Under the pieces are notes generated by a model. It searched no databases. It worked only from the letters and a program-made list of their open reading frames with translations, and was not told where the DNA came from. Shown piece by piece: positions 6,976-31,376 of a stretch of DNA of 64,000 nt. How positions within the stretch are numbered: the first letter of the stretch is position 1; each line of letters begins with the position of its first letter. Source of the DNA: Candidatus Woesearchaeota archaeon (GTDB taxonomy: Archaea; Nanobdellota; Nanobdellia; Woesearchaeales; GW2011-AR9); assembly GCA_041665465.1 (NCBI GenBank), contig JBAYIU010000001.1, positions 1,081,733-1,145,732 of the forward strand. The letters are read 5' to 3'. The position numbers and the translations under genes were made by a program.

Positions 6976-7950
6976 CTAATCAAACCATTCTGGAAAGAAA
7001 TCTAACTTCTTTTCTTCTACAATAATCACTGATTCGGTTTTCTTAATCAGTTCTGGGAAATCGTTTCTGATCTTATGGGTTAGTCCATAAAAGTCTTGTA
7101 ATGTTTCCGTCTCTATTTCCAATTCCATTTCCCACGGCCCGAGAGATTCGATAACATGAATCACATTAGGAAGTTCCATGCAGTAGTTAATAAATCGGTC
7201 AATCTCGTGTTCATAATTCTTCAAATAAAGACATAATTTGAAAAAATTGTATCCTATCTTTTGTGGATCAATAAACGTCACATAACCTTGAATAACTCCT
7301 TTCTTCTCTAGGTCTTTGATTCTACGTTGAGCAGTTTTAATATTCATTTTAAACTCTTTGACTAAGTCCATATAATTGAAGCGAGCGTAATTGGAGATAA
7401 ACCTCATGATAGACTTCTCTTCTTCAGATAAATCTACTTTGTCTTCATTCATAAACTTCTTAACTTTCTTTAGAACTGCTCCTTTTTTATTAATTAAATA
7501 TGTTCTGGGAGAAGTATGTCCTTCTGATAAAAACACTATATCATAATTGGTAATAAATCTTTCAAACTTGTTAAAGAAGTCTTTCTTCACAGAAGTAAAC
7601 TGATTCATGTTCTCTACATACGCACCAATCATCAAGTCCCAGCTTCCTTCACACTTGGCTACCCAAGAGATTCTTTGATCTTTCTGTAGGTAAGCATAAA
7701 ACTCTTTCTCTTCTTCTGGCGTGAATCCGGAAAGTTGGAAGTAAATCTTTCCTAAAAATAGTCCTAATCTGGCTAGTGAGGGTTGAACTACAAACTTCTT
7801 GATGACTCCTTCTTTAAGGAGTTGATTAACGTGATATTGGACATTATTCTTTCCAATACCTAACTTTTGTCCAATCTTAGAGAAACTCTCTCTAGCATTG
7901 GTGTCTAACTCTAATAAGATCTTGCGGTCAATCTTGTCTAATTTGGGCAT
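6976..7950 (-). CDS. Lrp/AsnC-family transcriptional regulator, tandem two-domain form
   Basis: Two repeats of an HTH_AsnC plus RAM-like unit (DRKILLELDTNARESFSKIGQKLGI; ...IMRFISNYARFNYMDLVKEF). 324 aa. Confidence 0.7.
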   Translation of the reverse strand: MPKLDKIDRKILLELDTNARESFSKIGQKLGIGKNNVQYHVNQLLKEGVIKKFVVQPSLARLGLFLGKIYFQLSGFTPEEEKEFYAYLQKDQRISWVAKCEGSWDLMIGAYVENMNQFTSVKKDFFNKFERFITNYDIVFLSEGHTSPRTYLINKKGAVLKKVKKFMNEDKVDLSEEEKSIMRFISNYARFNYMDLVKEFKMNIKTAQRRIKDLEKKGVIQGYVTFIDPQKIGYNFFKLCLYLKNYEHEIDRFINYCMELPNVIHVIESLGPWEMELEIETETLQDFYGLTHKIRNDFPELIKKTESVIIVEEKKLDFFPEWFD

Positions 7951-10302: not shown

Positions 10303-11163
10303 ATGGAAAAGAAACTCACCGCTCAAGGACCTAAAGATCGTAAGTCTTATACTGTAACTCTGCCCATAGAATGGGTCAAGTCTCAGCATCTTGACAAGAC
10401 GAAAATCATTATGATGAAAGTGGTGGGTAGTCGAGTGGTTTTATCTACCAGAAAAGAAACGCTTGAACATGAAGTGATTGATGGTGAAGCACATTCTAAT
10501 TCTCTGATTAAAGTGTTGCAGGGGTTATATCGACTCGGGGTAAATGAGATCAAGATCACTTACAAGAATCCCAAGGTCATCACTGCTGTTTCTCAGATTG
10601 TTAATGAAAAATTAATCGGCTACGAAGTCATGGAGCAAAAACCCAATTATTTAATCTTGCAAGATATTACTAGAGAATCTAGTGAAGATTTTGAGGTTAT
10701 CTTAAGAAGAATCTTTCTTCTGATGATGGAATTAATGAATTGCCAAGAAGAAACCCAAACCAACAGTTTGTTCAACAATATGAAAAAGTTGATTAACTAT
10801 TGTCAGAGAATTCTAGCCAAGTGGGGATCTTCCGATTTTCTTAAGACTCCTTTCTATTACGTTTTGCTTGATCATCTGGAAAAATTAGGTGATGAGTATT
10901 CTTGGATCAATTCTCTTAAGATCAAAGATAAAAATGACCTAGTTACTCTAAAAGAAATCAATCTCTGTGCTAGAAAAGCTTACGAATTATTTTACAAGTT
11001 TGATGCTTCAGAATATGATCATTATGAACATCAAACCTATTTAATCAAACATAGAATAACCTCTTCCGGACATTTAACTGTCTTCGATCTGCACTTGCAT
11101 AATCTAGCCAGAGTTTTGAATACCATTTATGGGGACATTTTTGTGTTAGGGTTTAAGAAGTAA
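10303..11163 (+). CDS. AbrB/SpoVT-N-terminal, PhoU-like C-terminal regulator (paralog 1 of 4)
   Basis: N-terminus KSYTVTLPIEWVKSQHLDKTKIIMMKV is a swapped-hairpin AbrB-like domain. The C-terminus is helical and PhoU-like. Same architecture as 20560-21489, 24940-25860 and 52515-53432. Confidence 0.65.
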   Translation: MEKKLTAQGPKDRKSYTVTLPIEWVKSQHLDKTKIIMMKVVGSRVVLSTRKETLEHEVIDGEAHSNSLIKVLQGLYRLGVNEIKITYKNPKVITAVSQIVNEKLIGYEVMEQKPNYLILQDITRESSEDFEVILRRIFLLMMELMNCQEETQTNSLFNNMKKLINYCQRILAKWGSSDFLKTPFYYVLLDHLEKLGDEYSWINSLKIKDKNDLVTLKEINLCARKAYELFYKFDASEYDHYEHQTYLIKHRITSSGHLTVFDLHLHNLARVLNTIYGDIFVLGFKK

Positions 11164-11170
11164 CTTATTC

Positions 11171-12181
11171 TTACTCCCAACAGATCTTTGGGAAATAAGT
11201 ATAATAATGTTCTTCATACCCCATCAGGATCTCATAATCTTTTAACTCTGGAGAAAAATGTTCTTTTAATTCAATCATGGTTTGATAGAACTCTTCGGTT
11301 CTTTTCACACAAAGATAGATGATCACATTAAACTTTCCAATGGTCTTGCTAGCCCAAATCACATTTTTATTAAACTTTAAGAAAGAACCTAGCTGTTGAT
11401 CTTTTTTTTCATCTAAGTTATGCAAATCTAGCAATAGGAAATATACTGTATATCCGATGTTAGAATAACTAATAATAGGAGAAAACTTTTGGATTATCCC
11501 TGCTTCTTGCATCCTCTTTATGCGATAACTAATGGTATCAGAAGATGTTCTGGTCATTTCTGCTAGTTTAAACAGGGGAATGGTGGCATTAAGAGATAAT
11601 TGTTTTAACACCAGTAAGTCTGTTTTATCTAAACTCCCTTCTTGTGTCTTCTTCTTTACATTGAGGTTCTCCTCCTTAAGATGAAGAAAGCTTCTTGGTA
11701 CTGCCTTATTAATATAATTCTTGGATATAATCAAGAGTTCATATTCTTTAAGATAGGAAGAAAGGTCTTTGATAATTTTGTTCACGACTAGATCTAATTC
11801 TGAAATATCCTTTGCAGCGATACTTACTTCAAAATTATACTTGCCAATGATTTCTATTACTGCTTTAATATAAGGGTTGGATTTAAGTAATCTAACTACG
11901 GTTGAGGTTACTTCTTTGTTTAACTGGTTCAATTGAAGAAATAAGTGATAGGTGTTATATCCTAATTTATTTAGATTCACCAAAACTAGATATCCTTGAA
12001 TTAGACCTTGTTTTTCCAGATTGTTAATTCGGTATCTTACTGAATCCTTAGACAAACCTACCTGCTTAGCAATAATAGTATTAGGAAGACGAGCATTTTC
12101 AGAGAGAAGAGCAAGAATCTTTTTGTCTTTTAAGTCAATCTTTATCTCTTTTTCCGAAATTATTCTTTGATTGAATCGCAT
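11171..12181 (-). CDS. Lrp/AsnC-family transcriptional regulator, tandem two-domain form
   Basis: Two HTH_AsnC units (DKKILALLSENARLPNTIIAKQVGLSKDSV...; DLLVLKQLSLNATIPLFKLAEMTRTSSDTISYRIKRM). 336 aa. Confidence 0.7.
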   Translation of the reverse strand: MRFNQRIISEKEIKIDLKDKKILALLSENARLPNTIIAKQVGLSKDSVRYRINNLEKQGLIQGYLVLVNLNKLGYNTYHLFLQLNQLNKEVTSTVVRLLKSNPYIKAVIEIIGKYNFEVSIAAKDISELDLVVNKIIKDLSSYLKEYELLIISKNYINKAVPRSFLHLKEENLNVKKKTQEGSLDKTDLLVLKQLSLNATIPLFKLAEMTRTSSDTISYRIKRMQEAGIIQKFSPIISYSNIGYTVYFLLLDLHNLDEKKDQQLGSFLKFNKNVIWASKTIGKFNVIIYLCVKRTEEFYQTMIELKEHFSPELKDYEILMGYEEHYYTYFPKICWE

Positions 12182-12278: not shown

Positions 12279-13361
12279 GTGATCTTGATGGAAGATAAAC
12301 TAAATACCTCTTTGGTGGCGGGATGGTCGTTTACTAAACGTTGTAATTTACGTTGTATTCACTGCTATGGTTCTTCTGGATGTAGAGCACCAGACGAATT
12401 AACTTTAGAAGAAGCCTTAAATGTGGCTGATAAACTTAAGACTTCTTGTGTAGAAGCAGTAAATTTTGGTGGAGGGGAATGTTGTCTTAGGGAAGATTTT
12501 ATTCCTTTATGTGAACGCTTACACTCTTTGGGTATAAAGATATCTTATACCACCAATGGAACTACCCTAAACAGAATCAGATCCCATCTATATTTATTTA
12601 ACGATGTGGGGGTTAGCTTAGATTTTCCGGATGCAGAAAGGCACGATTATTTTCGAGGAGGAAAAGGCATCTTTGCTAAAGCAGTGTCATCGTTACAAGA
12701 ATTAGTTGAAAGGGGGGTTGATACGGAGATAGTTACTTGTTTAACCAAGATGAATTGCTCTGAGAAAGATCTTTCTGATATGTATCAATTAGCCAAAGAG
12801 GTAGGAGTAGATTATTGGAGATTAAATCGTTTCAGAGCTAATGGTAGAGGGAAAGAGAATCAGAGTACACTTTCACTAACTCCAGAAGACCTCAGGAAAG
12901 CTTATACTTTTCTTTCTCAGTATGTGGATAATTCAGTTTCTGTTCCTGAACCAATCTATCGGGCTGCTTTTGGGGGTAAGTATACTTTTCCTGGAGATCC
13001 TTCAGGATATACTGCTTTTAGAATTCAACCTAATGGAGAAGTAAGTCCTTCAGTGTTCTTGACTGAAAGCGGAGGTAACATCAAGTATAATTCTCTCTCC
13101 GAGATTCTCGGTTCTCCTATCTTTAGATCAATCCGAGAAAGAAATCCGCAAGGAAAGTGTCAATCCTGTTCTGCTTACTCTCACTGTAAAGGAGGAGATG
13201 CAGGAGCTTCTTACTTAGAATATGGACATTTCAATGGTCCTGATCCTCTTTGTTGGCTTAGTGATAATGACATTAGGGGAATTGTTCAGCAGGAAATAAG
13301 TGAGACTTGGAACGTTCATGAGCGTTACCTTTGCACTCTTTATGTTCCTGTAAGAAAATAA
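12279..13361 (+). CDS. Radical SAM protein with a Cys-rich C-terminal auxiliary-cluster (SPASM/twitch-like) region
   Basis: CNLRCIHC (CxxxCxxC) motif, the GGGEC SAM-binding motif, and C-terminal GKCQSCSAYSHCKGGDAG...DPLCW. Confidence 0.75.
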   Translation: MILMEDKLNTSLVAGWSFTKRCNLRCIHCYGSSGCRAPDELTLEEALNVADKLKTSCVEAVNFGGGECCLREDFIPLCERLHSLGIKISYTTNGTTLNRIRSHLYLFNDVGVSLDFPDAERHDYFRGGKGIFAKAVSSLQELVERGVDTEIVTCLTKMNCSEKDLSDMYQLAKEVGVDYWRLNRFRANGRGKENQSTLSLTPEDLRKAYTFLSQYVDNSVSVPEPIYRAAFGGKYTFPGDPSGYTAFRIQPNGEVSPSVFLTESGGNIKYNSLSEILGSPIFRSIRERNPQGKCQSCSAYSHCKGGDAGASYLEYGHFNGPDPLCWLSDNDIRGIVQQEISETWNVHERYLCTLYVPVRK

Positions 13362-13374
13362 TGGAGGTATAACT

Positions 13375-14373
13375 ATGGTCGAACATCAAAAATTGCCGAA
13401 ACTAGACTTGAACATTACTAATCGATGTAATCTACGTTGTAAACATTGTGCTTTCGATTCTGGAGTAGAACAAATGTCAGAAATGAGTTTAGAAAAGATC
13501 TTGGAGGTCTTGCACCAAACCAGAGAATTAGGTGGATCTAAAGTGGATATTACTGGAGGAGAACCAACTCTACGAGATGATTACCTGAAGATTATTAAAG
13601 GTGCTAAAGAGATGGGGTATCAAGTAGAATTAGTCACTAACTCTCTGCGGTTAGATCATTCTACTTTAAAGACACTTCATTCATTAGATCTAGACAGTTT
13701 AGCGGTTAGCTTAGATGGATATACTTGGCAAACGCATGGTTTAATTCGTAATACCTCCTCAGAAGAGTTTGAGAAAGTAGTTAGAAATATTTCTGATGCA
13801 GTTAATTTGGGAATAAAAACCAAGATTAACACTTTAGCTTGTCAAGAAAATATGGAAGAGATTCCTCGGATTATTCAACTGGGAGAAGAGAAAGGAGTGA
13901 AAGAGGTAGGATTATATTATTTCACTCCCGTGGGAAGAGGAGCTCACCAGAATTTGCATTCTGTGGAACCTCTTACTTGGTTAAGATTTGTCCGAGAGAG
14001 ACTGGATCGAGAGTATACTCTTAAAGTTTCTTTAGAGATACCTTTGATTGAGAAAGAATTATACTCCCCTAAAATGGGGTGTATTTGGGATGTTGATCCT
14101 TTCCATCTTCAGATCTTACCCGAAGGAAAAACTTATCCTTGCGCCATCATGGCGTCTTATCATCTCCCTATTGGTAATTTGTATCATCAGAACATTAGTG
14201 AAATCTGGAAAGATGAATCTGTCTGGAGCAGGTATCATTCTCAGTTAGAAGGACACTTTAATAGGAACAAGGGGGGTTGTGTAGCTTTCCGAGACTTCGA
14301 TCTAAAAGATTATCCAGGATATTCTTTTGTTTGTCCATTAAGAAAATATTCTCCGCAAGAGGTGAGAAGATGA
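13375..14373 (+). CDS. Radical SAM protein, second of the tandem pair, with a C-terminal Cys-rich region
   Basis: CNLRCKHC, GGEPTLR, C-terminal YPCAIMASY...GGCVAF...FVCP. Good RBS-like GGAGG upstream. Confidence 0.75.
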   Translation: MVEHQKLPKLDLNITNRCNLRCKHCAFDSGVEQMSEMSLEKILEVLHQTRELGGSKVDITGGEPTLRDDYLKIIKGAKEMGYQVELVTNSLRLDHSTLKTLHSLDLDSLAVSLDGYTWQTHGLIRNTSSEEFEKVVRNISDAVNLGIKTKINTLACQENMEEIPRIIQLGEEKGVKEVGLYYFTPVGRGAHQNLHSVEPLTWLRFVRERLDREYTLKVSLEIPLIEKELYSPKMGCIWDVDPFHLQILPEGKTYPCAIMASYHLPIGNLYHQNISEIWKDESVWSRYHSQLEGHFNRNKGGCVAFRDFDLKDYPGYSFVCPLRKYSPQEVRR

Positions 14374-18736: not shown

Positions 18737-20575
18737 ATGGGATTAGCTGATAGATTCATAGAAGCAAGAGAAGCTTTTGAACTGGCTTATGATAGAGTTG
18801 CTAATGACCATTCTCGCTCATTACTGGATCCTCTGGTTCTTCCAGAGGTAGAACAATACTTGCCTGTACTTGCCGAAGCGGTTCGTGAAGCAAGTCTTCT
18901 TTCTCCACTTGAGATAGGAGAACTCATTTTTCATCCTAAAAAGGCTCAACGAGGTATGGGTACTGCAGAATGTCTTCTATTTGATTATCAGCTTGCTGCT
19001 GAAGGGTTTGGTTTGGCCAATGTAGAAAGAACATTGGGAGAATTTGCAGAATTAAGTGACTTCATGAGTTTAGTTATTGCGAAATTATCTACTTCTCCTG
19101 ATCTTCCTGCTGTTGAGAGAATATCTCTTATTGGTGGTTCAAAAAGAATAAAGTTGGTTCAAGGGACATCTGAAGTCAAAGGTGACAGTGCTGCTCAGAC
19201 CTATCTTGCTCGGGAAAGAGAAGCTCACTGTTTAGTCTTTCAAGGAGATGCCCCTCAACAAGTTCACAATGAAGTTACTGATTTACTTCTAGCTAGATTT
19301 GGTCCTCATAGTCCTTACTTTAAGAAAACAGGTAGATACATCCGGCCATATCATGTTGATGCTAAATCTGGTTTGGCAACCATTGCTCAACTTGATTCTG
19401 TTCCTGAGGTTCATAATATTGGTAATTTATCTGTAGCCCCTGCCTACTTTAGGGTAGGGGGAATGTTTATTGATTATCAAGATCTAGATGTGGTGATTGG
19501 TGAGCTTAAATCCTTTGGGTATAGTGTTAGTCCAGGTAGTTCTAATTCCTCTCTTACTGATCGTTTATTATCCGCAGGAGTACCTGAACCATTGGTTGAA
19601 CCATTAATCCAAAGTGTTAATGCCCAGATCGATCGACTAGATCATATCGTTACGGATACTATGACTGGGATTATGGGTCATGGTTGCGTAGGAAGATACG
19701 TTTCTTCAGAAGGAACGTATTGGTTTAAGATAGATACTAATTATTCTGCAGCGTATAAGTCTTCTCAGATTCCTGCGTTAATTCATGCTCGAGCAGAAGC
19801 AGGTAGTGAATTAGCCCAAGCCCTAGCTAGAAGAATTCCTTGCACTTTATCTGGTCTTCCGATTCAAGTAGGAGATTATCATGTTACTTTTTCTCGAGAT
19901 GCGAACGAAATGATGGTTCAGCCAGATTTAGTAGAAAGATCTATCCTGTCTGTAGAATTAGGGAGAGGAATAGGTCCCGAGATGCTTCAAAGGATTTATA
20001 CTACTGCATTATATCATGAAGTTTCTACTGATCTTAGTAAGGATAATCCTGATCCTTTGTTAAGCTCGGAAATTTTCCCCACCAATTTAGATCGGGAACA
20101 ATTGATAGCTCGTTTTAATGGAAGATTTACAGATTTTTCTTCTTTATTCAACAGAACTATTGATGGGGGCTATGAAGAAGGACGTGCTAGGTTATTAGAA
20201 CATCAACTTTCTGGGTCAATTCAAGGTATCTATGACAACAAACCTGAGAACTATGTGGGGGCTTGTTGTGTTGATCTTGGAATATCCAAACAAGGGGACG
20301 AAGTAGATGATTTAGCTAGATTGATGTTAGGAAAGGAAGAATTTGTGAAAAATCCCATTCTCTTAAATAATTATGTTGGTGCTTATATCAGAATTCGTCA
20401 AGGAATTCAGAAGAAATATCGTGGAGAAGCAACGTATCATCCTAGTGAAGAATTGTCTGAATTAGTTAGTCTACAATTACAATATGGTACTTGGAGAATG
20501 ATGGGATGGAGTGTAGTAAGGGGAGATGAAGAAGGATTAACTAAATATTTGCGATGTGCTCAAGAGTTTGTCTGA
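18737..20575 (+). CDS. Large hypothetical protein (612 aa)
   Basis: Long ORF with consistent coding potential and elevated GC (about 42%). No motif recognised. Confidence 0.5.
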   Translation: MGLADRFIEAREAFELAYDRVANDHSRSLLDPLVLPEVEQYLPVLAEAVREASLLSPLEIGELIFHPKKAQRGMGTAECLLFDYQLAAEGFGLANVERTLGEFAELSDFMSLVIAKLSTSPDLPAVERISLIGGSKRIKLVQGTSEVKGDSAAQTYLAREREAHCLVFQGDAPQQVHNEVTDLLLARFGPHSPYFKKTGRYIRPYHVDAKSGLATIAQLDSVPEVHNIGNLSVAPAYFRVGGMFIDYQDLDVVIGELKSFGYSVSPGSSNSSLTDRLLSAGVPEPLVEPLIQSVNAQIDRLDHIVTDTMTGIMGHGCVGRYVSSEGTYWFKIDTNYSAAYKSSQIPALIHARAEAGSELAQALARRIPCTLSGLPIQVGDYHVTFSRDANEMMVQPDLVERSILSVELGRGIGPEMLQRIYTTALYHEVSTDLSKDNPDPLLSSEIFPTNLDREQLIARFNGRFTDFSSLFNRTIDGGYEEGRARLLEHQLSGSIQGIYDNKPENYVGACCVDLGISKQGDEVDDLARLMLGKEEFVKNPILLNNYVGAYIRIRQGIQKKYRGEATYHPSEELSELVSLQLQYGTWRMMGWSVVRGDEEGLTKYLRCAQEFV

Positions 20576-21489
20576 GAAAAGTTTATTGCAAATAATGGCA
20601 CAGTAGTAAGATAAATCGTTCGAGCTAACTCTCCACAATAATATAAAATTAGGTTTTCTTCCCCTTTTGATTTTTTAAGAAGAAGAAATATTTCCCCATA
20701 AAGGAGATGTTTATTATTGTCATTTACTTGTTCTATTATCTTAAGATCTTTCTTTGAAAAACCTTCATATAGTAGTTCAAAACTGGCTTTAATCTCGGTA
20801 AATAATTTCAAGGTGCTGTTAGAAAAAACTGGCTTATTCTTTCCTTGCATTACTTCGTAAAGATGCAATAAACTATGTTGTGTTAGCAACAATCGTGTGT
20901 ATAATTCCCAGTAGGAGTTTATTCTCTCTTCTACAAATCTTCTTTTGGAGATATTTCTATTGCAAAAGTTAGAGTAACGATCAACATTTTTACTATTTTG
21001 TATTAAATGAGACAAATGAGAAAAATCCTTGTTCTTAAAATCGTTTTCTAATTGCTCAAAAGAGTTCTTAATAATTAGAAAGATTCGGCGCAGAAGTACT
21101 TCTTGCTTCTCCTCACTTGGTTCAGTTACGTTTTCCAAGATTAAGTAATTGGGGCTTTCTTCCACAATTTCAAACCCTAACAATCTTGCTTCTACTGTGT
21201 TCTTAATCAAATTTTTCTGTTTAGGGATGTTAAAAAATACTTTTATTCGGTCAAAGCCAGTACGATAAAGGACATTCAGATTACTGCGAATAATCTGTTC
21301 ACTTTCAGTAGATATCTTTAGGACAGAACTCTTCTTCTCACCTTTTGATTCGGTGCTGATGATAACTTTATTTTCTATTTCTTCTATATCTACTTCTTTT
21401 CCTGCCTTCAATCCGTTGAGTTTGGTCCATTTAGCGGGAAGAGTTAAAGTTAAAGCGTTATCCCCCTGCTTGATCAGTTTTCTACGCAT
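20560..21489 (-). CDS. AbrB-N/PhoU-like regulator (paralog 2 of 4)
   Basis: MRRKLIKQGDNALTLTLPAKWTKLNGLKAGKEVDIE at the N-terminus. Aligns with the other three paralogs. Confidence 0.65.
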   Translation of the reverse strand: MRRKLIKQGDNALTLTLPAKWTKLNGLKAGKEVDIEEIENKVIISTESKGEKKSSVLKISTESEQIIRSNLNVLYRTGFDRIKVFFNIPKQKNLIKNTVEARLLGFEIVEESPNYLILENVTEPSEEKQEVLLRRIFLIIKNSFEQLENDFKNKDFSHLSHLIQNSKNVDRYSNFCNRNISKRRFVEERINSYWELYTRLLLTQHSLLHLYEVMQGKNKPVFSNSTLKLFTEIKASFELLYEGFSKKDLKIIEQVNDNNKHLLYGEIFLLLKKSKGEENLILYYCGELARTIYLTTVPLFAINFSQTNS

Positions 21490-21528: not shown

Positions 21529-21575
21529 AACTTATATTACTTATATTTAAAATATAAGTTAAATATAAGTAGTTA
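21529..21575. promoter_or_regulatory. Composite palindromic operator-like element in a divergent promoter region
   Basis: aACTTATATTACTTATATTTaaAATATAAGTtAAATATAAGTag. Two direct copies of ACTTATATT face two copies of the reverse complement AATATAAGT. Confidence 0.45.
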
Positions 21576-21625: not shown

Positions 21626-21892
21626 ATGGTCACGGAAAGTTTAGATTTTGAACGAAATATTGGGTCTTTAGAGAGAGCCCTAAAATTACTCACAAAAGCG
21701 TACCTCTTAAGTGGAGCGATTGTAAGAGAAGAACAAGATCAAAGTAGAATTATTGCCTATACCAATGCGGCTTTATATTCTCTTGGTGTTGAACCCCGGG
21801 TTGATTTTTCAGAATGTCCTGATAGGTATACACCAAAAAATATTGCCGAACTAAGAAAGAAGACTCGGGAAGCATACCCTCACTTCTGCTAA
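21626..21892 (+). CDS. Hypothetical protein, first gene of a five-gene operon
   Basis: 88-aa ORF. Genes 21626-24918 are tightly spaced or overlapping (stop/start overlaps at 22653/22656, 23147/23150, 24103/24106). Confidence 0.35.
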   Translation: MVTESLDFERNIGSLERALKLLTKAYLLSGAIVREEQDQSRIIAYTNAALYSLGVEPRVDFSECPDRYTPKNIAELRKKTREAYPHFC

Positions 21893-21894
21893 AT

Positions 21895-22656
21895 ATGTTG
21901 AAAAATGGGGTTAATCTTGTCTGGAGAATAAAAATGAATCATCAATCAAATTTAGGATTAACTGCTTTGGTTGCTGGAGCTCTGGCTTTAATGAGTGCTT
22001 GTAATTCTGGAGTATCTAAAGAGGAAGAAAATAGATTATTACAACTAGAGAGACAAAAGCAAGTAGAAATACAAGAAGAGATGGCTAAACCTCTCTGTCC
22101 GGAAATACCTCTTTACTTAGCAAGAGAAAGCTCTCGATATGGGGCATTAGCAAAAGAATTTATCTTGACGTGTAATGATGTTGGTGGCCAGGGGGATTAT
22201 GGTCTTTTTGTTGAAGTAAAGAAAAATCTTTACAAAAATATGGAACAACAGAGGAAAGCTACCATTAAAGATTTGGTCTCTAAAGGAGTTATGTCTGAGA
22301 ATGGTACACTAAAATGTAGGTTTCCACAACCCGATTTGAATCAGTTAAGATCTGCCTATGATTCACTTTTTGAGAAAGAAGTAACTCCTATTTGGAGATG
22401 TCATACCAATAAAGGAAATATTCCAATGTGTGATTACATTGGATGTGCTGTTTTTACTGACAAGTATGGGGAAGAAAACTTTCAAAGAGGGAAATTTTGT
22501 AGTCCCACTGAAGCTGTAAGGGTGGAAAAAGATCAAATTGAAAGATATCTAATGCAAGAGAAAGGGGCTTGTCAACATGTGGATTATAATTATTTTGATC
22601 CGATCAGTGGGCAATGGTTCAATACTAAAACTGGAGTGATGAGGGACAAAAAATGA
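21895..22656 (+). CDS. Putative lipoprotein, Cys-rich
   Basis: Signal peptide ending in the lipobox-like LMSAC (likely start at the Met of MNHQSNLG at 21934). Several conserved Cys. Confidence 0.45.
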   Translation: MLKNGVNLVWRIKMNHQSNLGLTALVAGALALMSACNSGVSKEEENRLLQLERQKQVEIQEEMAKPLCPEIPLYLARESSRYGALAKEFILTCNDVGGQGDYGLFVEVKKNLYKNMEQQRKATIKDLVSKGVMSENGTLKCRFPQPDLNQLRSAYDSLFEKEVTPIWRCHTNKGNIPMCDYIGCAVFTDKYGEENFQRGKFCSPTEAVRVEKDQIERYLMQEKGACQHVDYNYFDPISGQWFNTKTGVMRDKK

Positions 22657-23150
22657 AACTATCTTATCTTATCTTAGCTTTGGGTTTAGCTACAGCTGGT
22701 GCTTGTACCTCTGAACAAGACAGAGCTAATCAAACTCGTTATAAAGCAGAAATTATTGCTTTATATGATCAACTAGAAGAGAAAGTTGCTAAAGCTCAGA
22801 ATCAATTAGCAATTGGCTCTATCGATCCTCTAAACAATGAGTATAAAGTGATTGAATGTTACAGAGTTTGGAGAGATTATCACTTTTCTACTAAGGAGGC
22901 CGGAGAACACAATTGGAAATATTGTTTATCTATCACTGAAGATGGAAAATATGATTGGGGGGCTTGTATTGATGACGCGGTGAATGAAATCTCTGAATCT
23001 AATCTTGATCCAAATCTATTGAAGGTTGGGGTGAAAAGTTCCTTTGAGAAACATTGTCGAGAACAAATAACCCTAGCTGATGAATTCATCTATTGTGCTG
23101 ATCATCTTAAACCTGAACCAGGTGTTGAAATTGAGGTAAATGAAATATGA
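22653..23150 (+). CDS. Putative lipoprotein
   Basis: MKLSYLILALGLATAGAC, a signal peptide with lipobox. Confidence 0.5.
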   Translation: MKLSYLILALGLATAGACTSEQDRANQTRYKAEIIALYDQLEEKVAKAQNQLAIGSIDPLNNEYKVIECYRVWRDYHFSTKEAGEHNWKYCLSITEDGKYDWGACIDDAVNEISESNLDPNLLKVGVKSSFEKHCREQITLADEFIYCADHLKPEPGVEIEVNEI

Positions 23151-24103
23151 TAAATGATAATTTAGAGATAATTGTAGAAAGAAGAGAAATTCGTCCAGAA
23201 AGAGATATTGTTGTCAAACAACTTGGGGTAGATTTCATAGATCAAGGAATCAATCGCGGATTTTTCGGATGGATAAGAGCTCGGATTGATCACTATTTAG
23301 ATTCAGAGAGTCGAACCTTAGCAGTTAGGAAGGAAGAATTCTTCCGAGATTATGCTACTACCTACACTACTTTATTTGGAAATGGGAATGATTGGGATTC
23401 TCTTCGAAGTATGGATCAAACTAAGATTGATGATACTCCTCAAGCAAGTTCCTTTTCTGGTTTAAGTCAGAAACATCGTGATGCGATTATTATTGATAAG
23501 ATAGTTAACGTCCTGGAAACCACCGAAGATCAGTTTGTGGCTGGATTATTCCGTGGATATTTGAGTCATGACTTAATGTGTTCAGATGCAGTTCATCAAT
23601 TGATTATGGGGTACGAACCGGGACAAGAATTCTCTTGGAGATCTAAACCTCGTCGTGAGATTACTCTTCATCAAGAAGGGGAATATTCCGAAAAGGTCAT
23701 CTGCAGATCAGAAGAAACGAAACGATTAACTCGAGATTATCCTATTGAAGATACTTTCGGAGAAGCTAGAGAGTATTTTGCTACTTGTAACAGAGCCATG
23801 GAACTCGCTCGACATTATCTCCGTTCTCCTGCTCAATGTACTGAAGCGGAAATGGGCGTTCTTGCTCCTTTCGCGGCTATCGCTGCTCGTGATGGAGAAT
23901 GGCGCGGTATTGAGTTAGAATGGAATGGCACAATTCTCGATTTCCAACAACATTTAGATGGAAATATGTTGGGAAGATTAGGTGAGGGAATCAAGAGATT
24001 ACAAGAAGCAAATATCGTTGACCTTCAGTATCATCAGGACAAAGTATATCTCTTGCCCACTGAAGGATTCATCCAATTGACTAGAGAGAGGTTGGGAAGA
24101 TAA
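23147..24103 (+). CDS. Hypothetical protein (318 aa)
   Basis: GC-rich (about 48-50%) ORF with no recognised motif. Translationally coupled on both sides. Confidence 0.5.
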   Translation: MINDNLEIIVERREIRPERDIVVKQLGVDFIDQGINRGFFGWIRARIDHYLDSESRTLAVRKEEFFRDYATTYTTLFGNGNDWDSLRSMDQTKIDDTPQASSFSGLSQKHRDAIIIDKIVNVLETTEDQFVAGLFRGYLSHDLMCSDAVHQLIMGYEPGQEFSWRSKPRREITLHQEGEYSEKVICRSEETKRLTRDYPIEDTFGEAREYFATCNRAMELARHYLRSPAQCTEAEMGVLAPFAAIAARDGEWRGIELEWNGTILDFQQHLDGNMLGRLGEGIKRLQEANIVDLQYHQDKVYLLPTEGFIQLTRERLGR

Positions 24104-24105
24104 GA

Positions 24106-24918
24106 ATGAAAAATCCAATAAATCTACTAAGGGGTTTAACTCAATCAGAAGAATTAAAATGGCAGGAAGCTTATGGTTTAATCTTAGCACGGGCGGAGGA
24201 GAAGACCAACCTTAAAGCATTAAGAACTGGAATTTATCGAGATCTTCAAGCACAAAAAATTCCTCCCAATGTCACAATGTCAACAAGAAGACATCCGGTA
24301 GACTATCTCTTACAGGCGCGTCTAGTCTTAGGCTCATGGCCGGATGCATTTTTATCCTATCTTTCTCCTAGTACTTGGACCTCTAGTGGTGGATCTTTTA
24401 AACTGGCAGAAGAGAGACTGGGTTACGATTTAGTAAACATTCTGCTGGAAAAAGAGAAAAAGCAAGGTCAATCCTCTATATTAGAAGTGGGTGCGGGATA
24501 TGCCGGATTTAAATCACAACCTGCTCAAGGGATGTGTAAATTATCTCACGTAGCGAATGACAAAATGGGCAATACCATTAATGCTTATTTCACTAACCTT
24601 TCTAGATGGCATGAACAACTCCCGAATGGAGTAGAAGAATTTCCCGGTGTTACTGCTAGTACCTTAGATTGTCTAAGCGGAAGAATATCTCCCTTAGATA
24701 TTATTTATTCTCAATGGGGAGCTTTTTATGATCCTCTAATTGATCGATTCATTCCTAGTGCGAGTGGTTTATTGAAATCAGATGGTTTGTTAATTTTTAA
24801 TCATTCTACTTTCTATGAGGGAGAGATCTTAAATGAAGCCAAAAAAAATCTTCTTTCCTTAGAAAAGAAAGTAGAGCTTCATCCTGGGAATAATATCTAT
24901 GCTTTTCGTAAAGCCTAA
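24106..24918 (+). CDS. Putative class I SAM-dependent methyltransferase
   Basis: ILEVGAGYAGF resembles motif I (E/D-x-G-x-G-x-G) in a Rossmann-like context. Weak evidence. Confidence 0.4.
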   Translation: MKNPINLLRGLTQSEELKWQEAYGLILARAEEKTNLKALRTGIYRDLQAQKIPPNVTMSTRRHPVDYLLQARLVLGSWPDAFLSYLSPSTWTSSGGSFKLAEERLGYDLVNILLEKEKKQGQSSILEVGAGYAGFKSQPAQGMCKLSHVANDKMGNTINAYFTNLSRWHEQLPNGVEEFPGVTASTLDCLSGRISPLDIIYSQWGAFYDPLIDRFIPSASGLLKSDGLLIFNHSTFYEGEILNEAKKNLLSLEKKVELHPGNNIYAFRKA

Positions 24919-24939: not shown

Positions 24940-25860
24940 TTATTTTTCTTCTTCTAGCATCTTTAATTGTAATAAAGAATGATTAAACATGGCAATAGTT
25001 CTAGCCACTTCAAATAGATAACACATCGCTAGTGGATTTAGCCCTTGTAATTTGTTTATTCGTTGATTAGTTATCTTTTCCATCTCATTTGCAAGGATGC
25101 CCGTTCTTTCTAATTCTGCAGGATTGTTTGCTTTAAAATAAGCTAGATACATCTGATCAAACATTTTGGTAAATTCTTCCATAAACGGAAGAATCTTCTG
25201 TTTTTGGTTTTTGGGGAGGTTAATGGTTGCTTGAACTAAACTAAACAGTTCTCTTTGGATTACGTAACAATCGCGATACTCCTGCCATTTAAATGGACTA
25301 TTCTTTAAGGGGTAATTAGAATAATTACTTCTAAGAATTGAATCACACTGAACCATACTCTTATTCAGGTTTGCAATACTTTTGAGGTTTTTAGAATCTT
25401 TTTTAAGCAGTTCTATCACTTCCAAAAATGTTTCTTTAACCAGATGAAAAGATCTTTTTTCTACAGTATTTATCTCGCTAGGGAAAGGGATTAAATTAGC
25501 TAGAATACAACAATTATTCTTTGTTTCTCTGATCTCATACCCATAAACATAATTATCTACCACTTCTCGAATATTTTTGAGGAATTGATCCTTTTCTTTC
25601 TCTTTAAAGAACAAGGTAAAACGGTCGCAACCCAAACGAATCAGAGAAAACATAATTCCTCGGATATTTCCAATATCTGAGTATTCTAGAGTTACACTGC
25701 GTTCTTTAGCTGGTCTTTTGTAATCTTCTGCTTGAATAATCAGCTGATTTTGTTCTTCTTCAATCTTAACTTCTTTACTCCCCAGCTTATTGCGGTCTAC
25801 CCAGTATTTAGGTACTGTCAGCAAATAAGAACCTTTATTGAAGACTAATTTTCTATGCAT
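24940..25860 (-). CDS. AbrB-N/PhoU-like regulator (paralog 3 of 4)
   Basis: MHRKLVFNKGSYLLTVPKYWVDRNKLGSKEVKIEEE at the N-terminus. Same architecture as the other paralogs. Confidence 0.65.
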   Translation of the reverse strand: MHRKLVFNKGSYLLTVPKYWVDRNKLGSKEVKIEEEQNQLIIQAEDYKRPAKERSVTLEYSDIGNIRGIMFSLIRLGCDRFTLFFKEKEKDQFLKNIREVVDNYVYGYEIRETKNNCCILANLIPFPSEINTVEKRSFHLVKETFLEVIELLKKDSKNLKSIANLNKSMVQCDSILRSNYSNYPLKNSPFKWQEYRDCYVIQRELFSLVQATINLPKNQKQKILPFMEEFTKMFDQMYLAYFKANNPAELERTGILANEMEKITNQRINKLQGLNPLAMCYLFEVARTIAMFNHSLLQLKMLEEEK

Positions 25861-25883: not shown

Positions 25884-25917
25884 ATATAAACCTTCCCTAG
25901 GGAAGATAGGGGAGAAG
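25884..25917 (+). promoter_or_regulatory. TATA-like element (TATATAAA) followed by the motif CCCTAGGGAAGATAGGGGAGAAG, which recurs at 27755-27777
   Basis: A near-identical motif, CCCTAGGGAAACTAGGGGGGAG, lies upstream of the 27850 gene. Both sit 50-100 nt before a + strand start. Confidence 0.45.
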
Positions 25918-25947
25918 TCTATAACAATTTTATTGTTTTAATCTCTC

Positions 25948-26754
25948 TTGGTGGTAGTGGGGGTTTTAAAAATGGCGTGGTTTATGAGACATAAGATACC
26001 TTATTTGGGTAAAGGAGATATACAACAGCAATATGATCATGAGAACAACCAAGTCTCTAATACTTTGTGTTATGGGGGAGTTTTTCTTAATCTTACTGGG
26101 GAAGAAAAGAATCGGGAAGAAGCAAGATGTTTTATCGGATTAGATGGTTTTTGGTTTTATGGGCACAAAGCTATAACTGCCTATCCTACTATTGATGCTG
26201 GGATAATGGTGGTTAAATATCGTGCTCTTGAAGAGGTTTCTCCTGACCAAGTAAATCATTTCTTAAAAAGAGAGTTCACTAATTGTGATGGTCCGGAGCG
26301 TGATGTTGGTTTAGAGATGGATATCTTTAAAGATCAAAGACTAGTCGTTAAACCAAAGGAAATGGCTCGTTATCATGATGAACTTAGAGAATGGCTCGAG
26401 GTATTGAATACTCATTATGCTCGACCTCATGCAGTTATGGTGGTTATGGCTATGAAACAGGAACTTCGTTCCTTGCCGGTGTTGGCTTTGGGTAATCGGT
26501 TGAATTATTCTGGACAAGAACGTGAAAAGAGAGGTGAACATGGAGCAAACCTATTCCCTCGGCCCACAGACATTCCTCTTCGAGATCGAGAGTTTGCTAA
26601 AGAATATCTTAAAGAATGCACTCCCGAAAACTATGAAGTGATTCAAGCAGCAAAAGCACATGGAATTAAAGAAGTGCGGCCGGTTCTAGACGAACTTGCT
26701 CGAGCTAAAGAGAAATTTGTGGAATCTTGGAGTTTGGACGGAAGGTTGTGGTAA
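25948..26754 (+). CDS. Hypothetical protein (268 aa)
   Basis: ORF with elevated GC. The true start may be the internal MAWFMRHK. No motif recognised. Confidence 0.45.
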   Translation: MVVVGVLKMAWFMRHKIPYLGKGDIQQQYDHENNQVSNTLCYGGVFLNLTGEEKNREEARCFIGLDGFWFYGHKAITAYPTIDAGIMVVKYRALEEVSPDQVNHFLKREFTNCDGPERDVGLEMDIFKDQRLVVKPKEMARYHDELREWLEVLNTHYARPHAVMVVMAMKQELRSLPVLALGNRLNYSGQEREKRGEHGANLFPRPTDIPLRDREFAKEYLKECTPENYEVIQAAKAHGIKEVRPVLDELARAKEKFVESWSLDGRLW

Positions 26755-26761
26755 AATGGCA

Positions 26762-27211
26762 TTAAGTTATCACAAATTCTGTTTTTATTTGTTTTAAAGA
26801 AGTGATGTCCTTAATGTGGGCCACTCCTTTACGGGCAACGACTCGTTTTAAGAATTCATAATATTGATCGACGTCTTTAGTTCTTACTTTAACGATAAGT
26901 TCACAATCTCCCATACAAACATCTACACTTTCCACTTCGGGGTGTTTAGCTATCTCTCTGCCAATCCTCTCTGGATTATCATATTCTTGTTCTGAGAGGT
27001 GAATCAGGACAAAACAGCAAAAACCTTCCTCTATTTTCTTGTAGTCAAAAATGGCTTTATATGTTCTTATAATCCCCTCTCGTTCCAATTTGTGAATATT
27101 ATAATGAATGGTGGTGGTGGGTTCTTTGATTTTTTTAGCAATCCTAGCCAACTGTGGAGTACAATAGTCCTCTTTAAGGAGAGGAATTAGCTTTGCTTGG
27201 ATATCTTTCAT
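26762..27211 (-). CDS. Lrp/AsnC-family transcriptional regulator (single-unit, 149 aa)
   Basis: HTH_AsnC (TPQLARIAKKIKEPTTTIHYNIHKLEREGII) plus a RAM domain. Confidence 0.7.
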   Translation of the reverse strand: MKDIQAKLIPLLKEDYCTPQLARIAKKIKEPTTTIHYNIHKLEREGIIRTYKAIFDYKKIEEGFCCFVLIHLSEQEYDNPERIGREIAKHPEVESVDVCMGDCELIVKVRTKDVDQYYEFLKRVVARKGVAHIKDITSLKQIKTEFVIT

Positions 27212-27213
27212 GA

Positions 27214-27273
27214 GATTATTGAATAATATTCAATTTTTTATAAAACTTTCGCATGATTATTGAATATTATTCC
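27214..27273. promoter_or_regulatory. Two direct copies of a near-palindromic box (GATTATTGAATA(A)TATT) upstream of the Lrp gene; candidate Lrp autoregulatory operator
   Basis: 27214-27234 and 27255-27273, each containing ATTGAATA/TATTCAAT symmetry. The TATA-like element TTTTTTATAAAAC lies between them. Confidence 0.4.
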
Positions 27274-27334
27274 GATATACTTATAATGATGTTACCCCTC
27301 CTAAAGGGTATCAAAAACAAAAGGGGGGAATAAA

Positions 27335-27685
27335 ATGACTGATTTAAGAGGAAAAGTAAGGGAAGTAGTAATAGGAAAAAGTGGAGGCGAATTAGTCGCA
27401 AGATTAAATGATGGCCAAGAAGTGGTCCTACTTAGAGCACCACATGGACATTATTTTGGTAGTGTACTTAGTGAGCCACAATTATGTGGGGATATCGTGA
27501 GATACACTAGAACTGATCACATTAGTGCTAGGGGAGATTATGGGAGTATTAGTAGAGATGAGGTAATGTCCTGTACTGTTGACCTGCGCGGAACAGCCCT
27601 TATTGAAAATGAAGGCGATAATCATAAATATGATTCTGTCAACCGTTCATGTCCTCGTACTCCTACACGATCATTTAGTTGGTAA
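27335..27685 (+). CDS. Hypothetical protein (116 aa)
   Basis: Strong RBS-like AAAAGGGGGGAATAAAATG. GC about 45%. Confidence 0.4.
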   Translation: MTDLRGKVREVVIGKSGGELVARLNDGQEVVLLRAPHGHYFGSVLSEPQLCGDIVRYTRTDHISARGDYGSISRDEVMSCTVDLRGTALIENEGDNHKYDSVNRSCPRTPTRSFSW

Positions 27686-27849
27686 TTAAAGAATCGTTGG
27701 GGGTATAAGGTAATTTCCTTTATCTTACTTTATTTTCTCTCTGGAGGGAGTTATCCCTAGGGAAACTAGGGGGGAGTTTAAAATAAACTTCTCTCTATTT
27801 TAGCTTAAATAGTTGGTTTTGGTGTTTTATAAATGTGGAGTGATCAATA

Positions 27850-28451: not shown

Positions 28452-29531
28452 ATGAAACGAATCACTTTAGCTAGTTTATTGTTGGGAGCTGCTCTTAGTT
28501 TGGGCGGATGTCATGAAGATACTCCGCAAGAGCAGATTGCAGATAAATTATCTCGTTCTCCAAAAAGTTTTCTGTGTGCGGTAGAGGATCACGTTAATTC
28601 TACTGCTCCTGCATTGTCCGTGGCTTCAGTATTGCAAACCGTTCCGGTGCTTAGTCCCGTAGTTAAGAATGATCTTCCCAAGACTATTCCTTTTACTGCT
28701 AATAGTGCTCCTAGAAAACATCGCGCTAACCAAGTTAATGGTAACATATTAACTGTTTACTTTACTACTGATCATTCTAGCTTTAACTCAAACGATACTG
28801 CTGATTTGGAAACCTATCTTCAAAGTTTACCTAATGGAACCCATTTGTTGGTAGAAGGTTATGCTGATCGAAGAGGTACTGATGAACATAACGCCTTGCT
28901 TAGTCAGCAAAGAGCTCAAGCTGTATCTGATTACGCTAAGAGATTTAATCCTACTTTGGAAACTGAACTTTATTCTTTTGGTGAGGGTCATCCGGCAGTG
29001 GAAGGTAAAGGGTTCAAGACTTATCAAGCTAATCGTCGAGTTAGAATTATCCCTCAAAAAAGTGAAGGAGTGATCACTACTGGACTAAGTACTTTAAAAC
29101 CATCTGATTATTATCTATTAGACCGAACCGGCTCAATGAAGGATATTCAATGGAATAGAGTTTCTAAGTGGAATGAAGTTCAATCTTATCAATTTCCAAA
29201 AGGGGCTAGTCTTTACACTTTTACTACTAATAATGTAACTAAAGGATGCACTGGTGAAGATTTAAATCAACTTACTCCTGATGGAGAGACTCCTTTGTTT
29301 GTGTCTTTATACTCTTTGTTAGATGAGATGAAAGAAGGTAGATCTGTAACTGTGCTAACTGATGGGATTAACAATGTAGGAGATGTTAGTGATAAGGACA
29401 TTATAGAAAGAGCTAGAGCAAAAAAGATTACTCTTTCCTTTCTAGCTCTAGTCCCTTGTGATAAGGACAGATTAACTTATCTGGCGAAAGAAACCGGCGG
29501 AGATACTTACTTGCCGATTGAGAAAGAATAA
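28452..29531 (+). CDS. Lipoprotein with an OmpA-like (peptidoglycan-associated) domain and a von Willebrand factor A domain
   Basis: Lipobox LSLGGC. VEGYADRRGTDEHNALLSQQRAQAV is the OmpA-C signature. YYLLDRTGSM (MIDAS DxSGS) and VLTDGINN mark a vWA domain. Confidence 0.65.
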   Translation: MKRITLASLLLGAALSLGGCHEDTPQEQIADKLSRSPKSFLCAVEDHVNSTAPALSVASVLQTVPVLSPVVKNDLPKTIPFTANSAPRKHRANQVNGNILTVYFTTDHSSFNSNDTADLETYLQSLPNGTHLLVEGYADRRGTDEHNALLSQQRAQAVSDYAKRFNPTLETELYSFGEGHPAVEGKGFKTYQANRRVRIIPQKSEGVITTGLSTLKPSDYYLLDRTGSMKDIQWNRVSKWNEVQSYQFPKGASLYTFTTNNVTKGCTGEDLNQLTPDGETPLFVSLYSLLDEMKEGRSVTVLTDGINNVGDVSDKDIIERARAKKITLSFLALVPCDKDRLTYLAKETGGDTYLPIEKE

Positions 29532-29942: not shown

Positions 29943-31376
29943 ATGACTATTAAAGAAAAGTTTGAAGCGATAAGGGATTATCGCAGCAGTAAAAAAGTCC
30001 AGATTGATCGTTTCTTAGATCCAGCTTTGTTTCTCACTTTTACTAATGCTGCTAGTTTGTATGGGTTAGATACGGCTTTAAACTGGGTGGCAGAACATTC
30101 AGATAAGCATGAAGGATTGGCTATGCTGGGAACTTATGCTGTTCTTGGTACAGGAATATATGAATTAAATAAGCATGTTCTTATCCCGGTAGCGAAGAGA
30201 ATAAAGCAATATCATGAGATCCGTGCTTTAAGAGGAAAAGATGCTACTGTTCTTAGCTTTGGTAAATCTGGAGCTTCACTAGCAGCATTAGCTACTTTGT
30301 ACGTTGTAGCTGGATTTAATCTTACCCTTAATGATTTCTACTGGGATGGAGATAGAGTAATTGATGCTTTTGCTCGTCATAAAAAAGCAGAACAAACCAT
30401 TGAAGAGGCTCAAGCTATTGATGTTACTCCTTTATCCTTAGAAGAAAGAGTTACTCTTGTGAATGAAACCAATATTTTAGAGAATAAAACATCTCTTGCT
30501 TCCTCTTCTGAGATTAAAGTAGAAAGTCCAACCGAGATTGGTAATTCTAACAAATATTCTACTAAAGGACGTTATTTAAGAACTCATCGCTGGGATAAAA
30601 TAAACCGAGCGGTAGAACAAAAATATGGGATTGAAGAAGGTCTTCTCTCCGGATTACAGATGAGAGAGAGTTATGGTAATCCGTTAGAACTTAATTCTGG
30701 AGATGATGGTGGAGCAGGATTGATGATGTTCCAACCCGGAACGGCCAAAGTATATGGTCTTAAAGTTTATGATGATGCTGGAGCTACGGGAAGAGATCGT
30801 AATCATGGAAGAAAACTTATCAAGTTAGTTAAAGATAATAATTATGATTATGAAGCTCTTGCTTCTATTGATGAAAGATTTGATGTACTTAAGAGTGCAG
30901 ATGCAGCAGGCAGATATCTTAGAGAGTTGTATGATAAATATGGTTCATGGGACAGCGCTTTATCTGCTTATAATCGAGGAACTCCGGCAACTAATCCTAA
31001 ATCTACTCGCCATGTTAAAACTACTCGAGAATATCAGCGATATTATCTTGAACATAATTCTGCAGGGGGAGAAAAGGTTGATGAAACCGTTTTGACTCGT
31101 CTTCGGCAAGATAGATTACCGGAATATCGATTCGTTAGAACAAATGAATTGGGACAAGCGGTTTATATGTACCGTGTTGAAGCTGGAGATAATGCCACAG
31201 TTATCGCTGAAACCTTTAATCGTTGGGATGGGAAACATGGAAGCAGATATCAAGACGTTGATTATACTCATATCGTTAATAGAGATAGAAAATATGTGGG
31301 ACACAGATTACATCCTGAGCAGTATGTTTACGTTTTAGCTGAACCTCTAGCTAAATCTAAACTTAAGAAGAAATAG
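29943..31376 (+). CDS. Membrane-anchored lytic transglycosylase (SLT domain) with a C-terminal LysM-like module
   Basis: Two N-terminal TM segments. QMRESYGNP...GGAGLMMFQPGTA...AYNRG is the SLT family signature with the catalytic Glu. The C-terminus YRVEAGDNATVIAETFN is LysM-like. Confidence 0.65.
   Translation: MTIKEKFEAIRDYRSSKKVQIDRFLDPALFLTFTNAASLYGLDTALNWVAEHSDKHEGLAMLGTYAVLGTGIYELNKHVLIPVAKRIKQYHEIRALRGKDATVLSFGKSGASLAALATLYVVAGFNLTLNDFYWDGDRVIDAFARHKKAEQTIEEAQAIDVTPLSLEERVTLVNETNILENKTSLASSSEIKVESPTEIGNSNKYSTKGRYLRTHRWDKINRAVEQKYGIEEGLLSGLQMRESYGNPLELNSGDDGGAGLMMFQPGTAKVYGLKVYDDAGATGRDRNHGRKLIKLVKDNNYDYEALASIDERFDVLKSADAAGRYLRELYDKYGSWDSALSAYNRGTPATNPKSTRHVKTTREYQRYYLEHNSAGGEKVDETVLTRLRQDRLPEYRFVRTNELGQAVYMYRVEAGDNATVIAETFNRWDGKHGSRYQDVDYTHIVNRDRKYVGHRLHPEQYVYVLAEPLAKSKLKKK

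Follow-up and report, generated by a model that had tools for sequence, protein, structure and literature searches.

What do five tightly packed genes contribute to an archaeon, and do they act together? The question is raised by a 64-kb stretch of DNA (the window) within a 1.56-Mb contig of a metagenome-assembled genome of Candidatus Woesearchaeota (DPANN), in which the genes g1 to g5 follow one another on the + strand; NCBI lists their products as MFA6461862-66, each annotated "hypothetical." With about as much confidence as doubt, we propose that this locus is a chromosomal, strain-variable envelope operon controlled by regL, a regulator encoded divergently from it, and that it would combine exported, Cys-rich proteins of the lipid-anchor type (g2 and g3) with S-adenosylmethionine (SAM)-dependent modification by g4 and g5. 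The recognizable parts add new members to known kinds, namely AbrB-type regulators, archaeal lipobox proteins, and the class I methyltransferase fold; the remaining products are ORFans. The genes of the operon are as follows.

g1, 21626-21892, + strand: open reading frame (ORF) for an 88-aa soluble small protein.
g2, 21934-22656, + strand: putative lipobox protein rich in Cys; 240 aa when read from Met14, the longest ORF beginning at 21895.
g3, 22653-23150, + strand: 165-aa Cys-rich lipobox protein.
g4, 23147-24103, + strand: 318-aa cytoplasmic protein, the conserved core of the locus.
g5, 24106-24918, + strand: 270-aa class I methyltransferase-fold protein of an uncharacterized family, here called F0.

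The five ORFs lie exactly where the first-pass annotation of this DNA had placed them, and the operon structure is real: the ORFs are tightly packed and have Shine-Dalgarno-like leaders, with GAGG or GGAG motifs upstream of g1, g3, g4, and g5. Stop/start coupling had been claimed throughout. It holds for g2/g3 and g3/g4, which share ATGA overlaps (22653-22656 and 23147-23150, respectively), whereas g4 and g5 are separated by a 2-nt gap (TAA GA ATG). In g2, a GGAGA motif lies 6 nt 5' of Met14 (21934) and the NCBI protein call is 240 aa; the start is probably at 21934 rather than 21895, and g1 and g2 would therefore be separated by 41 nt and are likely uncoupled. The reported rise in GC to about 50% in the distal genes was wrong: g4 (0.398) and g5 (0.380) compare with an ORF mean of 0.369 (standard deviation, 0.024), the maximum over 500 bp is 0.432, and 0.55 is reached only in a 100-bp spot at 23808. 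Rough dN/dS values calculated against diverged orthologues (0.33 for g3, 0.15-0.17 for g4, and 0.11-0.14 for g5) indicate purifying selection on these three genes. The region belongs to the core chromosome, since aEF-2, aEF-1alpha, and the CCA-adding enzyme are encoded in the same window.

Scans of the five products against Pfam, NCBIfam, PADLOC, and PHROGs returned no significant match, and neither did sequence searches of the PDB with g2, g4, and g5 or with profiles built from g5, g3, and the C-terminal domain of g4. The tRNA and Rfam scans of the window were empty, and a sigma-70 promoter and terminator scan gave results at or below chance and is not relevant to an archaeon.

The lipobox strings noted in the first reading, LMSAC in g2 and LATAGAC in g3, are present, and in both proteins the string comes after the sole hydrophobic segment; in g2, a single N-terminal hydrophobic stretch, LGLTALVAGALAL, is succeeded by MSAC and eight more Cys. 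At 3.6% Cys each (window median, 1.1%), both are among the most Cys-rich ORFs of the window. Lipoboxes were evaluated with a PROSITE PS51257-style rule, comprising a positively charged N terminus, a hydrophobic stretch, the pattern [LIVMFWSTAG]2-[LIVMFYSTAGCQ]-[AGS]-C, and a Cys at positions 15-35. The g3 sequence (MKLSYLILALGLATAGAC, Cys18) passes this rule and fails a stricter demand for [LVI] at position -3, where it has Ala. When g2 is read from Met14, its Cys is at position 23, but no Lys or Arg occurs among the first 7 residues; when it is read from Met1, the charges are present and the Cys is at position 36, one past the limit. The signal peptides with lipoboxes claimed for both products are thus borne out by the features of both and by the rule for g3, while g2 matches the pattern only if the demand for Lys/Arg or that for the Cys position is loosened. 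Conserved Cys pairs, also claimed for both, can be upheld for g3 only: its one orthologue, in the related Woesearchaeota locus L038 (67% identity), keeps the lipobox Cys18 together with Cys69, Cys105, Cys135, and Cys148 but not Cys91.

Lipobox lipoproteins and the lipidation enzyme AliA have been reported for DPANN, and archaeal lipoproteins are anchored through an archaeol thioether in an AliA/AliB-dependent manner (PMC12462473). Like such lipoproteins, g2 and g3 begin with a short N-terminal region, which is followed by a hydrophobic stretch of ∼13 residues and an [AGS]-Cys lipobox; unlike them, they have Met (g2) or Ala (g3) at position -3 in place of Leu, Val, or Ile, and g2 fails the strict PROSITE rule. 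We therefore regard both as putative members of this known kind of protein. An AliA gene was not encountered in the window, although no search aimed at AliA was made. Three more lipobox ORFs occur elsewhere in the window, and no paralogy was detected among g1, g2, g3, and other lipobox or small proteins.

g5 contains the string ILEVGAGYAGF, previously read as resembling a Rossmann motif I, which corresponds to motif I of the class I methyltransferase fold. Structure prediction, made for g5 and g4, gave g5 a seven-stranded Rossmann-like alpha/beta fold, and the motif [DE]-x-G-x-G-x-G after strand 1 corresponds to LEVGAGYAGF at residues 126-135. Among 30 F0 family members, G129, A133, and G134 are invariant and E127 and G131 near-invariant. 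In most class I methyltransferases, a ribose-binding Asp or Glu ends strand 2; in g5, strand 2 ends with the invariant T163-N164 (FTNLT), and no family member has Asp or Glu there. No Cys is invariant in F0, and a single His is near-invariant. A 120-residue helical region at the N terminus is specific to the family and carries the invariant motifs RDIQAQ and WTSSGGSFKLAE. We conclude that g5 has the class I SAM-methyltransferase fold and is a putative user of SAM.

With 35-50% identity and all invariant motifs, g5 is a clear member of F0. Pfam Methyltransf_11 (best E value, 8.2e-5) and Methyltransf_31 are matched by 8 of the 30 members, and g5 itself matches NCBIfam BioC at an E value of 0.0025, far below the BioC cutoff. 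Compared with class I SAM-dependent methyltransferases of the Methyltransf_11/UbiE-COQ5-like type, which act on small molecules, g5 is only 10-17% identical to solved enzymes, has Asn for the ribose-binding acid, and adds its own helical N-terminal region. F0 is an uncharacterized family with the methyltransferase fold; it has invariant motifs of its own and lacks a Pfam model. Its distribution is patchy, spanning DPANN archaea, Candidate Phyla Radiation (CPR) bacteria, Mesorhizobium and other Rhizobiales, Pelagibius, Pseudomonas, Ignavibacteria, and Geobacteraceae, as well as 266 Klebsiella/Enterobacter plasmids on which RefSeq names it "methyltransferase domain-containing protein"; WP_004196315 is the Klebsiella homologue.

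This cross-domain patchiness, the carriage on enterobacterial plasmids, and integrase genes near F0 in two bacterial loci are what one would expect if g5 were the methyltransferase of an antivirus defense module or of other mobile-element cargo. We consider this highly improbable. The PADLOC and PHROGs scans lend it no support; no PADLOC model was satisfied, and the only hit, mad2 (E value, 0.004), ran across the generic methyltransferase region.

The genes that travel with F0 point toward the cell surface. The gene directly 3' of F0 was tallied at 45 nonredundant loci with downstream sequence:

F1: 31 of 45 loci.
F34: 4 of 45 loci.
Neither F1 nor F34: 10 of 45 loci, including the window and its close relatives.

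F1 proteins are exported, bearing either a lipobox or a Tat signal; they contain the motif GDCRHK and match Transglut_core weakly. F34 is a membrane-anchored archaeal family, and an hhalign comparison of F1 with F34 gave a probability of 0.6%. At other DPANN loci, an AbrB-type regulator is encoded divergently upstream, and genes for secreted enzymes with a Tat or Sec signal lie between the regulator and F0, among them an Amidase_2-like protein (by motifs) and a relative of DUF1615 with lytic-transglycosylase-like motifs. Homologues of regL adjoin F0 genes at six nonredundant archaeal loci. Since exported-protein genes adjoin F0 at most loci in both archaea and bacteria, the comparison agrees with the early suggestion that the module relates to the surface; the choice of surface modification or surface display as the function is a guess. 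Two candidates for the missing partner in the window were rejected. The ORF g6 (25948-26754) has no similarity to F1, and g3, considered as a divergent member of F34 or a partner of the transglutaminase-like type, is ranked first among the window ORFs by the F34 profile (E value, 0.006) but reaches an hhalign probability of only 10%.

In Proteobacteria, the F0-F1 pair sits inside Ni/Co/Cu resistance islands. On the 266 Klebsiella/Enterobacter plasmids, a gene for a small His-rich secreted protein is followed by F0, F1, and then directly by the nickel-resistance genes ncrABCY. Genes for HupE/UreJ, NicO, MFS, and multicopper oxidase proteins occur near the proteobacterial pair, and in Mesorhizobium a penicillin-binding transpeptidase gene then follows it. 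The bacterial arrangements come from loci L051 (K. pneumoniae plasmid NZ_CP015501.1, 6567-8733), L021, L027, and L036. This setting, the ZIP and NicO genes within 4 kb at locus L041, and the high Cys content of g2 and g3 could mean that the operon is a metal-stress envelope module, with a role for g5 and the Cys-rich lipoproteins in metal response or metal handling. We assign this explanation a low probability. No metal transporter or sensor is encoded near the operon in the window, F0 lacks invariant Cys and has just the one near-invariant His, and F0 is neighbored in archaea by genes for cell-wall-type enzymes instead of metal genes; joint travel on mobile islands may account for the bacterial association. 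The window and the F0-F1 pair have in common that g5 belongs to F0. They differ in that g5 follows the lineage-specific g4, that two ORFan lipobox proteins are encoded upstream, and that metal-resistance genes are absent nearby.

The protein encoded by g4 is far rarer. It is present in only three protein clusters worldwide among 5.8 billion. An exhaustive HMMER search recovered nothing beyond the C-terminal domain of g4 (residues 188-318), which occurs in ten unannotated small archaeal proteins; one of these sits amid housekeeping genes. The same domain is the only confident part of the predicted structure. Kinship of g4 with DUF1615, or with genes that lie upstream of F0 elsewhere, was considered and dropped, with E values of only 0.04-0.1 in tiny databases. 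Its context was compared at the window locus (WIN) and at the related Woesearchaeota loci L038, L042, and L053, of which WIN, L038, and L042 are complete. Slashes set off the regulators at the two ends:

WIN: regL / g1, g2, g3, g4, g5 / regR.
L038: regL / an unrelated 88-aa Gly-zipper protein, g3, a 112-aa membrane ORF, g4, a radical SAM/SPASM protein, g5 / regR.
L042: regL / a 65-aa ORF, g4, a radical SAM/SPASM protein / regR.
L053: ... g4, g5 / regR.

The five genes had been presented as one conserved system. Instead, the same flanks enclose differing gene sets in three related loci, and g1 and g2 are unique to the strain. Shared flanks with variable content argue that the five-gene operon is one state of a variable cassette, a mosaic in which g4 is the constant element and conserved core. 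Directly 3' of g4 there is always a SAM-using enzyme, namely g5 in WIN and L053, a radical SAM/SPASM protein in L042, and both in L038. The genes g3 and g5 are jointly present or jointly absent in the three complete loci.

The two upstream genes behave differently from this core. Outside the window, g1 and g2 were found only in a contig 99.96% identical to it, with no diverged orthologue of either, and both are strain-specific. For g2, the codon-usage log-odds value of 0.20 is gene-like, and no relatives were found in family scans, the PDB sequence search, or metagenome contigs. The g1 ORF has a GAGGT motif 9 nt 5' of its start, encodes no hydrophobic segment, and matched no family in the family scans; its position in the relatives is occupied by unrelated small ORFs. 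Its codon-usage log-odds value (0.08) is marginal, slightly above that of spurious ORFs, and its coding status is the weakest of the five.

An alternative explanation for these data could be that the locus is not a functional unit at all but a hypervariable insertion hotspot, where fast-evolving ORFans accumulate between conserved regulators and tight packing reflects a compact genome. The content between regL and regR does differ at every related locus while the flanks and promoter region are conserved, g1 and g2 lack homologues anywhere, and F0 is as patchy across domains as mobile genes are. We nevertheless judge a mere hotspot unlikely. The ATGA overlaps and Shine-Dalgarno spacing imply cotranslation, the combination of g4 with a SAM enzyme is invariant, g3 and g5 come and go together in the three complete loci, and an AbrB regulator recurs beside g5 homologues in distant DPANN lineages.

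The radical SAM/SPASM proteins of the relatives raise another possibility. These 287-aa proteins (L038, 2277-3140; L042, 5199-6062) are translationally coupled to the g4 orthologue, and their best NCBIfam matches, which are weak, are to metalloenzyme and tungsten-cofactor maturases. As in the clusters for ribosomally synthesized and posttranslationally modified peptides (RiPPs) that rely on radical SAM/SPASM enzymes, a SPASM radical SAM gene directly follows g4 in related loci and a small ORF heads the operon. The window locus could then be the remnant of a RiPP-like cluster in which the variable first ORF encodes the precursor, g4 serves recognition or scaffolding, and a radical SAM/SPASM maturase acts with g5 as a tailoring enzyme, the radical SAM gene having been lost in the window strain. 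We think this improbable. Unlike RiPP clusters, the window locus has no radical SAM gene, recognizable precursor family, RiPP recognition element (RRE) fold, protease, or transporter. Neither a precursor peptide family nor a recognition domain (RRE/PqqD-like) was found at the window locus, and no counterpart of the relatives' radical SAM protein was found there or elsewhere in the window (best phmmer E value, 0.18, to an unrelated ORF).

Control of the envelope operon favored here was assessed from the elements that frame it:

regL, 20560-21489, - strand: 309-aa AbrB/MazE-domain regulator, divergent from the operon.
regR, 24940-25860, - strand: 306-aa paralogue of regL, convergent to g5.
Operator-like element, 21530-21570, no strand: ACTTATATT present four times, twice direct and twice inverted, in the promoter region between the divergent regL and g1.
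Palindrome CTTCCCTAGGGAAG, 25892-25905, no strand: perfect 14-bp palindrome between the divergent regR and g6, which marks a boundary and lies outside the operon.

The flanking genes had been called PhoU-like, a label that finds little support; they encode paralogous AbrB/MazE-domain proteins. regL matches Pfam MazE_antitoxin (E value, 1.2e-6; residues 6-49), and PF04014 was matched by 8 of 9 members of its family (best E value, 7.4e-10), with regR itself below threshold. PhoU (PF01895) was matched by neither regL nor regR and by 1 of 9 homologues (E value, 2.6e-4), and a profile search of the PDB with the regulator family returned no PhoU structure. JGI names regL a "phosphate uptake regulator." Like the archaeal AbrB/SpoVT-PhoU proteins of that name, regL and regR combine a swapped-hairpin domain of the AbrB/MazE type at the N terminus with a helical C-terminal region of ∼250 residues; unlike them, they show no PhoU match and have no adjacent phosphate-transport genes. 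The two are 29% identical, from residue 1. In L042 (64% identity) and in L052, an orthologue of regL is found at the corresponding site; regR is 94% identical in L042 and 78% in L038.

All four occurrences of the 9-mer ACTTATATT in the window fall at 21530-21570 (expected in 64 kb, 1.45 in total), and nested inverted repeats occur in this regL/g1 operator-like region. The ACTTATATT block is identical in WIN, L038, and L042, in which the surrounding flanks are 75-80% identical. The palindrome CTTCCCTAGGGAAG is unique in the window and conserved in WIN, L038, L042, and L053, just after the TATA-like TTTCTATATAAA; it probably serves as regR's own operator. The operon had been described as flanked on both sides by PhoU-like regulators. 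Only regL shares the ACTTATATT promoter region, whereas regR is convergent and faces g6 with its own palindrome. This arrangement points to regL as the likely regulator of the operon and places regR in the neighboring regR/g6 unit.

From these elements a working model can be drawn. regL would bind the ACTTATATT element and so switch the operon. g2 and g3 would be exported, and an archaeol thioether on the lipobox Cys would anchor them in the membrane, their Cys-rich ectodomains forming disulfide-stabilized surface proteins. In the cytoplasm, g5 may use SAM as methyl donor for a lipid, a small molecule, or a protein bound for the envelope, with g4 as its candidate partner, adaptor, or substrate, a role suggested because a SAM-using enzyme always directly follows g4. 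g5 itself is a horizontally mobile gene, paired elsewhere with an exported transglutaminase-like protein.

Several observations weigh against this model. The three relatives differ in gene content, so that the five genes may not work together, and g1 and g2 enter the unit through adjacency alone because they have no orthologues. The usual exported partner of F0 is absent from the window (best E value, 0.88 for F1 and, to g3, 0.006 for F34), and the g3-F34 similarity, at an hhalign probability of 10%, is not significant. Position -3 of the lipobox is noncanonical in both g2 (Met) and g3 (Ala). The invariant Asn164 replaces the usual acidic residue that binds the ribose of SAM, so SAM binding by g5 is not assured; the window g5 itself has no Pfam match, and g4 has no convincing match to solved or viral folds.

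If the envelope reading is right, the locus exemplifies surface-protein variation in DPANN, with a conserved regulator and operator framing a cassette of strain-dependent content. A bolder proposal, which we put forward only as a long shot, is that g4 represents a new kind of partner, adaptor, or substrate for SAM-using enzymes, always translationally coupled to a radical SAM/SPASM protein or F0, and that, separately, F0 and its exported transglutaminase-like partner constitute an uncharacterized envelope-modifying system of DPANN, CPR bacteria, and proteobacterial metal-resistance plasmids that has been rewired here to lineage-specific lipoproteins. The locus has no bearing on a long-standing open question. 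The broader lead is the F0-F1 pair upstream of ncrABCY on hundreds of clinical Klebsiella/Enterobacter plasmids, which could give the family a function; this bacterial version is easily tested genetically.

The regulators of the locus have company. Four paralogous AbrB/MazE-domain regulators of ∼300 aa lie within the 64 kb (10303-11163, 20560-21489, 24940-25860, and 52515-53432), each with different neighbors, and represent a local family expansion. Lrp/AsnC-type regulators are encoded at 6976-7950, 11171-12181, and 26762-27211, two of them double length with an internal duplication. With both groups, the window is unusually regulator-rich for a DPANN genome. The AbrB-type regulator at 10303-11163 and the double-Lrp protein at 11171-12181 adjoin two tandem paralogous ORFs (12279-13361 and 13375-14373; 27% identical), the first of which encodes a radical SAM/SPASM protein (Pfam E values, 7.9e-21 and 1.9e-6).

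Beyond regR, g6 is a conserved 268-aa ORF divergent from it, with 78% identity in L042 and 52% in L038; its true start is probably further downstream than the listed TTG, because the sequence from the TTG start is not in the protein collection. In L053 (88% nucleotide identity), the regR promoter region joins a 197-aa lipoprotein gene directly, window positions 25915-27754 being missing, and g6, the Lrp/AsnC regulator at 26762-27211, and g7 are therefore an indel between strains.

Further downstream, a lipobox protein with an OmpA/Pal-type peptidoglycan-binding domain (28452-29531; Pfam OmpA, 8e-9; NCBIfam Pal, 7.5e-14) is followed by a 477-aa protein with an SLT lytic-transglycosylase domain (29943-31376; 1e-14), and the pair is conserved in L038 and L042. 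Murein is not expected in this archaeon. Peptidoglycan hydrolases of DPANN are discussed in PMC8204110, PMC9723730, and PMC12352652. Small paralogues are also found as tandem pairs at 45909-46295/46299-46685 (32% identical) and 55097-55558/55546-55986 (38% identical).

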